Shown: positions 27,520 through 46,740, counted from the stretch's first letter. The stretch is DNA of 64,000 nt from Dictyostelium discoideum (GCA_000004695.1 CM000150.2:3712001-3776000), one strand, 5' to 3'. Made by a program: numbers and translations. The notes: generated from the sequence alone by a model not told the origin.

Positions 27520-28260
27520 CACTCAAAAATACACAAAATGATATAATAATGGTATTAAAATGTGAAATTTTCTTTGCTGTGATAAAAAATAATAAAAAAA
27601 AGTATGACCTATTAATTTTTATTATTGTTTTTTAAATAAACCTTAAGCTGTACTTATTAAGAAAGGCTGTTCCAGTGCTGTTTTTCGGCTAAATTTAATT
27701 CTCTTCTTTTTAGGTAGGTTACCAAAATCCTATTCTTTTACTTTTTTTTAAAAAATATACTATTGAATATTGTATTGGTAGATTAATAATACAGCACAGC
27801 AAAGAAAATCCAGCATTAAAATGACATTTAAAATAAAATGTAATTTAAATGATATTTTTAATATCATTTAAATACCATTAAAAATTAAATGATATTTTTA
27901 ATATCATTTAAATACCATTAAAAATCAAATGTCATTTAAATTTTATTTAAATGATATTATAATTAATAATATAGTTAAAATATAATTAGTAATATAATTA
28001 ATAATATAATTTAAATTACATTTACCATTAAAATGATCATTAAAATGAAAATTAATATTAATATTTTAAATGATATTATATTGTTAATTTTTATATAATT
28101 TAAAATTTAATTAGTAATAAAATTAATAATATAATTTAAATTACATTTACCATTAAAATGACAATTAAAATGAAATTTTAAGGGAAATTTAAAGTTAAAT
28201 TAAAAATTTCATTATTAAGAATATTTAAATGTTAACAAATTTGTTCTAAATTGTTTCATT
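27520..28260. repeat. Copy of an unnamed interspersed repeat with internal direct sub-repeats; the same element occurs inverted at 45790-46740
   Basis: The block 27600-27830 (gtatgacctattaattttt...ggctgttccagtgctgttt...ggtaggttaccaaaatcctattctttt...cagcacagcaaagaaaatccagcattaaaatgacatttaaaataaaatgtaatttaaatgatat...) is the reverse complement of 46240-46420 and 46640-46720. Internal sub-repeats (aaatgatatttttaatatcatttaaataccattaaaaat, twice) are shared. Confidence 0.7.
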
Positions 28261-28757
28261 TAGTTTAAATTTTTTTCCACTAAAAATAATATAAATATAA
28301 TTAAAACAGATAACGAATTCATTCAATGTGAAGTTAGGAAAATAAAAAAAAAAAAATAAAAAAATAAAAAAATAGTATTGAATTAAAAACAAATTAAAGT
28401 TTTCCATATCCATGAAAAATTAAAATAGTTTTATATTTTTATTTATTTTTTTTTTCTTAATATCTATGATGCAAGGAATTGGAATTTTTAAGAAACATTT
28501 AGAATAAAATCACCAACAGGGAATTTTGGTCAAACTTTAAATTTTTTTTTTTTTTTTTTTTTTTTGTAAATGGTAAAATCCATATCACTTCCAATTAAAG
28601 ATTAATTAAAGTTATTAACTTTTAATAATTATTTTTTAAAATTTTAAATAAAAAAAAGTAATTTATATACATATATTTTATTAATAATAATTATTATTAT
28701 TATTATTATTATTATTATTATTATTATTATTATTATTATTATTATTATTATTATTAT

Positions 28758-30851
28758 TTAAGCTTGAGATTGTTTATCATCATTATTATTATGATTATTT
28801 AATATTGAAGATGGTTGTTTATCTATTGAAGATGACTCAATTTCATTTGAGTTTGAATTTGAGTTTGATTGATCAATCTTTTTTAAAGAGATTGATTGAC
28901 CTCTTGTTTTTCTAGTTTCCCTTGTTTTTTCTCCACTTGATCCTGATGAATTTGATGAAGTACTTGATTTTTTACTTGGTACTGGAGTATTTCCCCATTT
29001 GATACCAACTAAATGTAATAAATAGTTGAATCTTTCAGACTCTCTATAAATAGTTGCAATATGAGGATCAATACCTAACCCAAATAAAAGAAGTATACCA
29101 ATAATTGACATACAAAAAGCATTCATATATCTAAGACCAAATCTTGAAAATTGAATTCTTGGACATTGATCATTTCCTTTTTCTAATAAACAATATACCC
29201 ATTTTTCAATTGCATCATAAAATACTTCACCATTATACGATACATATAATGGATACATTGATGTAAATGAAATACAAAATAAAATTACTAATAAAAATGT
29301 AACTGATCTTAACTTTAATAAATAAATAAAATTAATAAAAATTAATAATTCTATATATATAATACACAAAAATTTTAATTTAAAATTAATACTTACATTT
29401 AAAAATAAAATTCTTCTATCATTTATTGATTTAAATAAAACAGTCATTTTAAATACTTTATATATTGATGATGTAATAAAAATAACCATTAAAAATGTTA
29501 CAATATATGCTGGTACTATAATTATAATTTTTTAAAAAAATTTAAAAATTTTAGTAATGTTAATTTAATTTTAAAAAATAAATAATTAATACATACTATA
29601 AAAACAAAAATATAACCAAAACCTATTATTATATTCACCAATCCAACAACCTGCACTATCAATAGTAGATTCATAATGTTTTATTGGTAATAAAGCAAAG
29701 AAAAAAATTAATGCCCAAACTCCAATTGATGTTTGTAAAAAGTATTTATTTGTTTCTAAAATTAAAAAAAATAAAAAAAATAAAAAAAAAATTAGATAAT
29801 TATTAATTTACTATTATTTTTATTAATTTTTAAAAAATTTATACTTACTCATATTAATAGTTAAAAAGAAATCAAATGAATAAAGTGATAACATAAATAT
29901 AGTACCTAAACCACCCATTTGAAAAAAAAAACCAGTTAACATACAATTACCATCTTGACTACTACGATATCTACCAGGTTGTGATGAACATCTAAAATCA
30001 CCATTACCATATTGTTGAGTTGCATAACTTGCACATAATGCTAAAACTGTAAATCCCAAATAAATGATAATCCAACTACGATGTGTAATTTTATTTTGAA
30101 TTAAACCAAATGTAAGAATTAAATAAACTGCAATTGTTGCAGATACACAATAAAATACAACTTCAGTATAAAATTTTGCATCATATTGTTTGTCTGTATA
30201 AACATATAATGGACAAGGTAAAACACAATTTGGCATTACTTCATGAAACTTTTCACCATTTTTTATATCATCTGTTGAAACATAAACCAATGGATAAACA
30301 CATGAAACTGTGGTATTGGTTGATCCTTGATTTGGATTTGAACATTGAATTGATTGATTTGAAGAACCACCATAACTTGTTAAATTATAATAATTCTCTG
30401 TAATTGGGTAAAGATCCTTACCATCGGTATCATTTTGTTGACATGAAAAACCTTGGAAAAATGAAAGAAAAGGTACACATGTTTCTAAAACTTTAAAACA
30501 ATTCTTTTGACATGGATTCGATGGTAAAGGGAATGAAATACCATTTATATTACTATTACATTCTCTATAGGTTGAAATACAAAATAATTTAATTATATTC
30601 TCTTTACAAATTAAATCTGGAATTGCACTAAATCCCATTGGATTTGTTAAAGTTGCTGTAACATTTGCTTCAATAATTTCTTGAGTATATCCATATGGTA
30701 AATAAATATTTTTATAACCTAAATAATTTGAACACATTGAAATTGGATTTAATATTTCACATTTTGATCCAATATCTAAACTATTTACAAATAATTTTTT
30801 TAAAAAAAAAAATTTTAAAAAAATTAAAAGAATTTTCATTTTCATTTTCAT
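28758..30851 (-). CDS. Frizzled/smoothened-like 7TM receptor (Fsl family): signal peptide, Frizzled-type cysteine-rich domain, seven transmembrane helices and a Ser-rich cytoplasmic tail; about 611 aa
   Basis: Four exons on the minus strand: 30851..29849 (donor GTAAGT), 29755..29597 (donor GTATGT), 29515..29397 (donor GTAAGT), and approximately 29312..28758. The last acceptor is uncertain by one nucleotide: the six-frame track reads through this 84-85-nt intron in frame, whereas my own count of the printed bases gives 85. The cysteine-rich domain is [16 protein letters not shown]...[22 protein letters not shown]...[16 protein letters not shown]...FSC; seven hydrophobic helices follow. Confidence 0.7.
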
Positions 30852-31579
30852 TTTTTTTTTTCTAAAAATAATTTATTTTTGATGTTGAATTGTGTTTAAA
30901 TGTATTTTTAAAAATAAAAATATAAAAATATAAAAATATAAAAAAAAAAAAAAAAAAAAAAACTAAATTTCAGCAACACGTTTTACGTATTTTTTTTTCG
31001 TTGATCAAATTTTTGTTCGGCATTTCATTTTATAAAAAATCGACCAAAAAAAACCCACTTATTTTTAATTTTTCAGATAACAAATTCAATAAGTCATCAA
31101 AAAAAAAATAAAAAAAATAAAAAAAAAAATAAAAAAAATAAAAATTAAAAAATCTATAACTGGTTGTAAGATATTTTTTTTTTTTTTTTTTTTTTTTTTT
31201 TTTTTTTTTTAGAATGGGCAAGATATTTTCATTTTTTTTAAAATAATTATTAATTATTATTTTTAATATCTTACCCATTTTTTTTTTTTTTTAAATAATA
31301 ATAATTAATTAATTATTTTATTTAATTTTTATTTTTTTATTTTTTTAAATAATAATTCAATTAATCAATTATCCATATCTATTTTTTTTTTTTTTTTAAT
31401 TATTTAGGGATAAAAAATTTTAAATAAACAAAAAAAAAATATAAAAAAAGATATTTTCAGATTGATTAAAAAAAAAAGTTGAAAAAAAAAGTTGAAAAAA
31501 AAAAATGATAAAAAAAAAAAAAAAGTTGAAAAAAAAAAAAAAAAAAAGTTGAAAAAAATTGATTAAAAAAAAAAAAACG

Positions 31580-45697: not shown

Positions 45698-45768
45698 AGT
45701 AAGTAAGTAAGTAAGTAAGTAAGTAAGTGAACAAATAATTAGAGAGAGAGAGAGAAAGAGAGAATAAG
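45698..45768. repeat. Compound microsatellite, (AAGT)7 followed by (AG)n
   Basis: Read directly in the sequence. Confidence 0.9.
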
Positions 45769-45789
45769 AATACTTACATGTACTATGCC

Positions 45790-46740
45790 CGGGATAATAC
45801 CTAAAAGAAGAGAATTAAATTTAGCCAGAAGATTTATTAAAAAAAATAATAATAATTAATAAGTCATACTTTTTTTTTCATTATTTATGTTAGTAATACA
45901 TTGGCTCACAGCAAAGAAAATATCACATTTTCAATACCATAAAAATTAAAATTCTTTTTTACTGTAACATTTAATTTTCTTAAAAATGAAATTTTTAATT
46001 TTTAATTTACTTTAAAGTTTCATTTTAATGGTCATTTTAATGGTAAATGTAATTTAAATTATATTATTAATTATATTACTAATTATAATTTAACTAATAT
46101 TAATTATAATATCATTTAAATAACATTTAAATGACATTTAATTTTTAATGGTATTTAAATGATATTAAAAATATCATTTAAATTACATTTTATTTTAAAT
46201 GTCATTTTAATGCTGGATTTTCTTTGCTGTGCTGTATTATTAATCTACCAATACAATATTCAATAGTATATTTTTTAAAAAAAAGTAAAAGAATAGGATT
46301 TTGGTAACCTACCTAAAAAGAAGAGAATTAAATTTAACCAGAACGCGCTGGAACAGCCTTTCTTAATAAGTACAGCTAAAGGTTTATTTAAAAAACAATA
46401 ATAAAAATTAATAGGTCATACTTTTTTTTATTATTTTTTATCACAGCAAAGAAAATTTCACATTTTAATACCATTTAAATTACATTTAAATGTTCCAGTG
46501 AAAATGAAATTTAAATCTAGTTTAAAGTTTCATTTTAATGGTCATTTTAATGGTAAATGTAATTTAAATAATATTAATTACAATTTAAATGACATTTAAT
46601 TTTTAATGGTATTTAAATGATATTAAAACCATTTAAACTGCATTTTATTTTAAATGTCATTTTAATGCTGGATTTTCTTTGCTGTTCTGCATTATTTAAT
46701 CTACCAATACAATATTAAATAGTTTATTTTTTTTTTAAAA
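45790..46740. repeat. Two tandem copies, inverted relative to 27520-28260, of the unnamed interspersed repeat
   Basis: The units run approximately 45830-46330 and 46380-46740. Each contains cacagcaaagaaaat(a/t)tcacatttt...tttcattttaatggtcattttaatggtaaatgtaatttaaat...gctggattttctttgctgt(g/t)ctg(t/c)attat and ggtaacctacctaaaaagaagagaattaaatttaaccagaacgcgctggaacagcctttcttaataagtacagc. Confidence 0.7.

Follow-up and report, generated by a model that had tools for sequence, protein, structure and literature searches.

The question raised by this locus is why two copies of an A/T-rich repeat should lie in opposite orientations on either side of about 18 kb of Dictyostelium discoideum DNA, and whether they are a mobile element, the cause of an inversion, or something else. 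The window analyzed here is the whole 64,000-nucleotide (nt) stretch of D. discoideum AX4 that contains them; its coordinates are counted from its first letter and its G+C content is about 20%. When compared with AX4 chromosome 1, its proteins matched DDB_G0270978 (100% identity), DDB_G0270980 (99%), and DDB_G0269854 (identical or nearly so). The preliminary description had taken the two copies, at 27.5 kb (c1) and at 46 kb (c2), for an interspersed and possibly mobile repeat, but every copy that we detected is a piece of one Pmp3-family gene, DDB_G0270978, with exon sequence included. In our judgment, it is quite likely that the whole arrangement is explained by copied segments of this gene, an intron made by duplication, a dispersed fragment, gene conversion between the copies, and surroundings that are prone to inversion.

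The inverted pair itself was confirmed by a repeat search, by megablast, and by global alignment. In particular, the repeat search over the window returned two sets of inverted arms, 27687-27897/46129-46339 (99% identity over 211 nt) and 27536-27678/46345-46487 (95% over 143 nt); megablast aligned 27548-27987 with 46475-46046 (92% over 441 nt); and a gapped global alignment extended the homology, matching 27548 to about 28237 on the plus strand with 46477 to about 45962 on the minus strand. The tandem dimer proposed near 46 kb is also present, with units 46745-46313 and 46285-45801: the segments 46367-46743 and 45816-46283 share 72% identity in a gapped comparison, and 46095-46276 and 46554-46732 share 89%. 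No further copies occur in the 64-kb window, where the remaining matches are A/T low-complexity noise. Thus, the picture of a single copy facing an inverted dimer stands, with the correction that the 27.5-kb copy is one repeat period, which runs from the right arm of one hairpin to the inside of the next.

The minus strand at 46.8 kb presents an ATG and then a GT donor, with one of the reported “unique cores” of the repeat following in frame, and the gene reads as follows.

45657-46811, minus strand: gene DDB_G0270978 (Pmp3/YqaE family, 56 amino acids), exons 46811-46751, 46375-46313, 45800-45778, and 45680-45657

The joined exons translate to MGACGTILLLLLCIFFLSPVAVLIKKGCSSAFWLNLILFFLGIIPGIVHGIYVILS, which is identical over its full length (100%) to XP_646355.2/DDB_G0270978, and the protein matches Pfam PF01679 with 61.8 bits against a cut-off of 22.9 (E = 6e-17), its residues 8-55 lying on positions 2-49 of the 49-position profile. 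The source gene of the repeat is a full-length member of the Pmp3/YqaE family, and all copies of the repeat are pieces of DDB_G0270978. The supposed cores exist, but they are not the cores of an element: ggctgttccag...ttaaatttaattctcttctttttag is exon 2, ggtaggttaccaaaatcctattc is the duplication junction at the start of intron 2, and cacagcaaagaaaat is the 15-nt inverted end of a hairpin within the intron, the A/T-rich remainder being intron. For annotation, this means that the repeat should not be masked or cataloged as a transposon. A full-text literature search for the name DDB_G0270978 gave no match.

The gene was compared with loci of three outgroup species, D. firmibasis (L001), D. citrinum (L004), and D. 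dimigraforme (L005), and with loci of the assemblies ACTFIZ (L003), ACTFIR (L011), ACTFIT (L012), ACTFIW (L007 and L008), and ACTFIY (L006 and L009). Each of the outgroups carries two tandem Pmp3 genes, A and B, 0.4 to 2.5 kb apart; intron 2 is absent from all six of these genes, and exon 2 is contiguous across the site in the three species. In AX4, the corresponding region is built of the following parts.

46313-46745, minus strand: tandem unit U1, most of intron 1 plus exon 2 (from the U1/U2 alignment)
46286-46312, minus strand: duplication junction, gtaggttaccaaaatcc followed by tattcttttac, which supplies the new GT donor and whose last 11 nt are those of the start of D. citrinum intron 1 (gttagTATTCTTTTAC)
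45801-46285, minus strand: tandem unit U2, in which intron 1 and the 5' part of exon 2 recur in degenerate form (from the U1/U2 alignment)
46442-46686, minus strand: hairpin module H1 in intron 1, with the stem (C/A)ACAGCAAAGAAAAT / ATTTTCTTTGCTGTG and an interior of ATTTAAAT-type palindromes
45907-46231, minus strand: hairpin module H2, which lies in intron 2 and whose closing stem is a perfect 15 bp

Intron 2 (46312-45801, 512 nt) consists of the junction and U2 and aligns to the intron 1 and exon 2 that precede it; U1 (46745-46313) and U2 (46285-45801) are arranged head to tail, and their best blocks reach 89 to 93% identity. The first 27 nt of intron 2 end in TATTCTTTTAC, the same letters as nt +6 through +16 of D. 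citrinum intron 1, and it follows from this junction and from the alignment that the duplicated unit began close to the 5' end of intron 1 and stopped shortly after the AG|GT. The AX4 donor reads ...TTTTTAG|gtaggt and the acceptor ...cttttag|GTATTATCC, the downstream site being cttttag|GT, and a 37-nt deletion in U2 took out the parental acceptor together with 32 nt of the duplicated exon. The 512-nt intron sits exactly at the site that reads ...TTAG|GTATTAT... in the outgroups; AG|GT is found there in three of the five outgroup sequences examined (both D. firmibasis genes, both D. citrinum genes, and D. dimigraforme gene A), and the sequence TTAG|GTATTA occurs in D. citrinum gene A and in both D. 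firmibasis genes. Intron 1 of the outgroups is about 90 to 190 nt long and contains no hairpin.

Since three outgroup species do not have intron 2, we regard it, on the evidence of these alignments, as an intron gained by tandem duplication. The four-exon structure is shared by ACTFIW (L007) and ACTFIY (L006), whose differences from AX4 are all synonymous in exon 3 and almost all synonymous in exon 2, and from the curated protein model (version.2) and this purifying selection we infer that intron 2 is spliced in vivo. The D. discoideum gene is an A-type paralogue in its promoter, exon 1, intron 3, and exon 4. A fusion of the ancestral paralogues A and B was also considered and was ruled out, since the gene is A-type on both sides: at the 5' end in its promoter and exon 1, and at the 3' end in exons 3 and 4 with the intron between them. 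As a separate observation, intron 3 (45777-45681) is present in AX4, ACTFIW, ACTFIY, and gene A of both D. citrinum and D. dimigraforme and is absent in both D. firmibasis genes and in D. citrinum gene B; this 56-codon gene thus has a second and older difference in intron presence.

The copy at 27.5 kb has a different character, and two features describe it.

27548-28237, plus strand: c1, a non-coding Pmp3 gene fragment of one repeat period (from the alignment to 46477-45962)
27648-27713, plus strand: exon-2-like segment of c1 (AVLIKKGCSSAVFRLNLILFFLG), with a 3-nt insertion and the acceptor changed from tag to aag (from the alignment)

It lies in the spacer between the imidazolonepropionase gene (DDB_G0269854) and a frizzled-like gene. 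Its sequence starts with the right hairpin arm, passes through the intron tail and the exon-2-like segment to the duplication junction, and closes with the left arm and the interior of the next hairpin; it also has internal duplications of its own of 51 nt and about 120 nt. Exons 1, 3, and 4 were not found near c1, and the search for a remnant of exon 1 or of the promoter upstream of it in AX4 returned only poly-T similarity. The fragment occupies the same site in five genomes of the D. discoideum complex, i.e., AX4, ACTFIT (L012), ACTFIW (L008), ACTFIY (L009), and ACTFIZ (L003), and in ACTFIZ it reaches further 5', to the start of intron 1. Because its exon-like part is broken in frame in ACTFIY and carries a stop in ACTFIZ, c1 is best described as a decaying gene fragment with no ends of its own, rather than as an element. 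At the D. dimigraforme locus, no Pmp3 sequence is present at the left end, where c1 would lie, and the spacer of this species is too diverged for an empty-site alignment.

A further property of the pair emerged from the 440 nt shared by both copies in the three genomes that have both (AX4, ACTFIW, and ACTFIY). In 13 variable columns of this alignment, the two copies agree within each genome while the genomes differ from one another, against a single copy-specific column; outside the exon, identity is 98.9 to 99.3% within genomes and 95.3 to 98.6% between genomes. The excess of genome-specific shared columns (13 versus 1) indicates concerted evolution, that is, gene conversion between inverted copies 16 to 18 kb apart. 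The locus offers a case of ongoing gene conversion in an inverted paralogous pair of 0.5 to 0.7 kb at that distance.

As for the DNA between the copies, the block and the breakpoint that concerns it are located as follows.

28238-45961, strand not applicable: bracketed block, with the frizzled-like gene, ornithine decarboxylase, a 561-amino-acid gene, importin, the LEA-like 357-amino-acid gene (LEA357), and a gene-poor mosaic spacer (40.9-45.8 kb)
27265-27285, strand not applicable: poly-A run, about 0.27 kb outside c1, that holds the left breakpoint of the inversion in ACTFIR

Nine genes had been counted in this block; we recognized five clear ones, and the NCBI accession numbering has room for six. 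The Fz domain of the frizzled-like gene has E = 4.7e-5, which is below the Pfam cut-off. The AX4 orientation of the block is found in AX4, ACTFIT (99.7% identical to AX4), ACTFIW, and ACTFIY, the last two being collinear with AX4 across both copies in single contigs, and also at the left junction of ACTFIZ; D. dimigraforme shares with AX4 the gene order, the orientation, and the neighbors of the block. The exception is the D. discoideum isolate ACTFIR, where L011 1-7295 matches window 33453-40877 (plus/plus) and L011 9908-15093 matches window 27265-22199 (plus/minus): since these matches have opposite strands, the block and its left flank lie in inverted orientation to each other over at least 33.4-40.9 kb of the block. 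The 2.6-kb junction between them (L011 7295-9908) continues from the LEA-like gene into the spacer, and part of it corresponds to AX4 41318-42135 and part, at 86% identity, to ACTFIW L007 1-581; the ACTFIW homology ends about 1.06 kb short of c2 and is followed by about 0.4 kb of unmatched sequence and then by window 27265. No repeat motif and no Pmp3 exon were found in L011 7295-9908. A single inversion that comprised c1, the block, and most of the spacer appears to account for the difference between AX4 and ACTFIR; c1 of ACTFIR would then lie in tandem orientation to the gene, about 1.3 kb downstream of it. Two features of the same junction have no AX4 counterpart: a 267-bp direct duplication (97%) in L011 7950-8563 and, at L011 8710-8834, a 125-nt palindrome (aaaaccttgtaagggctgttcataaccc...) that is comparatively rich in G+C and resembles the termini of a transposon.

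The right-hand surroundings have been rearranged as well. Compared with the three outgroups, the Pmp3 gene has moved from its old site, between DDB_G0270980 and a tetraspanin gene, to the spacer between LEA357 and a 502-amino-acid gene, and its orientation is inverted there. This spacer (window 40.9-51.1 kb) measures about 2 kb in the outgroups; in AX4, it is a gene-poor mosaic of about 10 kb. Two further rearrangements have a breakpoint in it: in D. citrinum (L004), window 51.1-60.75 kb is inverted between the LEA-like and SH3 genes, and in ACTFIY (L006), the segment corresponding to AX4 55476-57033 has been relocated to the other side of a 538-amino-acid gene. The LEA357/502-amino-acid spacer is a rearrangement hotspot reused among Dictyostelium species and strains. 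A duplication at staggered breaks was also considered as the direct origin of c1 and is unlikely, as the inversion would need to cut the gene between intron 2 and exon 3.

Taken together, these observations can be arranged in a sequence of events whose order we infer. Each of the three repeat units was copied, at the DNA level, from one segment of about 0.5 kb, which comprises intron 1, with its hairpin of 245 to 325 nt, and the first 63 nt of the ancestral second exon. A tandem duplication across the AG|GT of the coding exon would have turned the upstream GT into a donor and the downstream AG into an acceptor, so that splicing would remove the downstream copy as a new intron of 512 nt and leave the protein unchanged. 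A further partial copy, c1, spans the tandem junction and would accordingly have been copied from, or converted by, the already duplicated gene; it is found 17.7 kb away, inverted and intergenic, and is non-functional. Between the gene copy and c1, recombination without crossover continues and keeps their intron-derived parts 99% identical in each genome. Finally, the two spacers that host them are inversion prone, and in ACTFIR, judging from the one junction read, c1 appears to have been inverted together with the block, with no crossover inside the repeats.

Several points weigh against this account. The splicing of intron 2, as said, is deduced from curated annotation and conservation, and for the 17 nt of the junction, gtaggttaccaaaatcc, the origin is ambiguous. 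Between strains, no part of the gene has diverged as much as exon 2, which is odd: AX4 and ACTFIW share 79% identity over it (46375-46313), with nearly all of the 21% divergence being synonymous, and exon 1, the introns, and the flanks are 97 to 100% identical between strains (0 to 3% difference). Duplication and conversion explain this incompletely, and our best guess is a patchy conversion from a diverged paralogue. Moreover, the 15-bp inverted terminus of the hairpin module and its clean loss from one unit in ACTFIZ would also fit the insertion of a foldback element or of a miniature inverted-repeat transposable element (MITE), and the copy number of the module is known for the 64-kb window and 12 related loci. 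Lastly, the inverted state of the block comes from one assembly, ACTFIR, in which one junction was read.

The alternative that survives best, even if we consider it rather doubtful, concerns the origin of c1. It is possible to hypothesize that c1 is the decayed remnant of the tandem paralogue B, which an inversion breakpoint between A and B parted from its neighbor, so that the two came to lie at opposite ends of the block, and that ACTFIR keeps or has restored the tandem state. This would agree with the closely spaced A-B pairs in all three outgroups, with the lack of a second functional Pmp3 gene in the AX4 window, with the ACTFIR breakpoints, which would bring c1 downstream of the gene in the same orientation, and with the fact that another inversion in the window left an inverted duplicate (see below). 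However, c1 contains the A-specific duplication junction and the hairpin module, so that a wholesale conversion by A would be needed; at least two inversions would be required, as the D. dimigraforme block is in the AX4 orientation; and the position of c1 in ACTFIR is itself deduced from the breakpoints. We retain the reading of a copy taken from, or converted by, the duplicated gene.

The second alternative starts from the hairpin. The module measures 245 nt in intron 1 and 325 nt in intron 2, and each is closed by 15-bp terminal inverted repeats, CACAGCAAAGAAAAT / ATTTTCTTTGCTGTG; the third reported core, cagcacagcaaagaaaat, is one arm of the 15-bp stem that closes both modules. The predicted RNA folds are very stable in intron 1 (-90.7 kcal/mol, z = -9.2) and in intron 2 (-98.1 kcal/mol, z = -5.6). 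The module could accordingly be a foldback or MITE-type element, possibly thug or DDT, that inserted into the Pmp3 intron and drove the duplications, and the perfect termini, the strength of the folds, the absence of the module from the outgroup introns, and the one ACTFIZ unit that lacks it, with the gap exactly between the termini, all agree with such an insertion. We nevertheless find it unlikely. In the 64-kb window and the 12 related loci (about 240 kb), the module occurs only in Pmp3-derived sequence; the ends of the repeat units and of c1 ignore its termini, and the units include exon sequence. No target-site duplication, for which a check had been proposed, is visible at the ends of the module or of c1, and the boundaries of the copies do not match the inverted termini. 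An Rfam search of the whole window at gathering level gave 0 hits, and a permissive one over 45.6-46.9 kb gave only one miRNA hit at chance level; a metagenome scan for the hairpin terminus gave no match, and none of the published Dictyostelium microRNAs (miRNAs) that were compared maps to DDB_G0270978. Furthermore, thug-S, unlike the module, is described as a multicopy DNA transposon with an intron of its own and is a source of miRNAs (PMC4894637, PMC6161686).

The third alternative assigns the inversion to the repeats themselves, which would serve as substrates of nonallelic homologous recombination (NAHR) and flip the 18-kb block, ACTFIR being a crossover product. The idea has some appeal: the inverted pair is 97 to 99% identical, pairing and recombination of the copies are evident from their gene conversion, the breakpoints of the ACTFIR inversion fall in the same two intergenic spacers, and both orientations exist in the species. 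The suggestion that the bracketed block can be inverted has a counterpart in this isolate, and the proposed synteny check located the inversion in ACTFIR, with the AX4 order in ACTFIT, ACTFIW, ACTFIY, and D. dimigraforme. The proposed role of the repeats fares less well. The ACTFIR junction beside imidazolonepropionase is free of repeat motif and Pmp3 exon, the left breakpoint is about 0.27 kb outside c1, the ACTFIW homology on the other side stops about 1.06 kb from c2, and the AX4 orientation is common to four genomes. Since the junction that was read lies outside both repeats and no hybrid copy was found, crossover between the repeats is not demonstrated, and we consider NAHR improbable as the origin of the inverted state; that the inversion moved c1 as a passenger of the block agrees better with the junction.

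Weaker still, and in our opinion very improbable, is a more ambitious version, in which the module would be an uncharacterized lineage-specific foldback element or structured RNA under whose influence local duplications, ectopic conversion, and breaks arise; the Pmp3 copies would toggle between tandem and inverted arrangements and so drive recurrent inversion of the 18-kb block in natural populations. If it were true, a block of housekeeping genes would be recurrently inverted in natural D. discoideum populations. Finally, a composite mobile unit that has the pair at its ends and carries the enclosed genes is hardly credible, as only the inverted arrangement itself speaks for it, whereas the genes are conserved housekeeping genes (ornithine decarboxylase, importin, and others) with the same order, orientation, and neighbors in D. 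dimigraforme, where the left end has no copy, and no transposase lies in or near the AX4 block.

Other rearrangements were noticed in the region. An inverted duplicate of 581 bp (98.6%), derived from the 3' end of the M1 aminopeptidase gene, flanks that gene (16343-16923/21514-22094, with 19106-22094). The gene is inverted in AX4 and ACTFIT compared with D. dimigraforme, ACTFIZ, ACTFIW, and ACTFIR, all of which have a single copy of the 581 bp; the inversion is lineage specific and has a duplication at its breakpoint. Inversions by which short inverted duplicates are left behind or moved are thus common in the region. Further segmental duplications, all direct, are 42164-42470/50085-50390 (92%), 49904-50633/56004-56748 (73%), and 3873-4199/13577-13900 (83.5%), and a tandem repeat of about 72 nt occupies 44633-44850. 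In the gap between the frizzled-like and ornithine decarboxylase genes, ACTFIZ has about 4.4 kb (L003 1821-6305), including a called 258-amino-acid gene, versus about 0.26 kb in AX4 (31210-31468). Beside imidazolonepropionase, ACTFIY carries DDE transposase genes (DDE_Tnp_1/DDE_Tnp_4 and DDE_1; L009 11891-14664 and 18731-19105) that the AX4 window lacks, a sign that transposons have inserted close to the left flank in a strain-specific manner.

Compared with known systems, the protein is an ordinary member of the Pmp3/YqaE/UPF0057 small proteolipids (PF01679), with 56 amino acids and an end-to-end match to the profile, and what is unusual is the structure of its gene and its relocation relative to the sister species. 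Inverted segmental duplications border polymorphic inversions elsewhere, through NAHR in human and as breakpoint duplications in Drosophila. The present pair resembles them in that short inverted paralogues lie at the ends of a block, the orientation varies among isolates, and the arms are homogenized by conversion; different from those cases, the read junction is outside the repeats, no hybrid copy is seen, and the pair seems to have been moved by the inversion rather than to mediate it. With MITEs and foldback elements, including thug and DDT, the module has in common that it is A/T rich, non-coding, and lineage specific, with short inverted termini and a strong hairpin, but it differs in that no target-site duplication or independent copies are seen and the boundaries are off the termini, the comparison with thug being made with the published description of thug-S.

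We know of no earlier report of an intron gain of this kind in Dictyostelium. At this locus, the state before the gain (in three sister species), the state after it (in three D. discoideum-complex genomes), and a recognizable template are all at hand, and in such a tractable organism the tandem-duplication model would be directly testable by removing or re-creating the duplication. Proven recent gains of spliceosomal introns are few (PMC4974935), and the closest systems are the intron gains by tandem duplication described in 2011 (PMC3265369) and in the potato RdRp gene (Ma et al. 2016, PMC4974935). As in potato, the duplicated segment spans the boundary between intron 1 and exon 2; as in the classic model, an exonic AG|GT gives the donor in the upstream copy and the acceptor in the downstream copy; and, as in intron gain by tandem duplication generally, the mature mRNA would be unchanged and the intron is missing in close outgroups. 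Different from those cases, the parental acceptor of the downstream copy has been deleted here, so that only the AGGT-derived acceptor is left, the duplicated intron contains a large hairpin module, and a third, dispersed, and inverted copy exchanges sequence with the gene.

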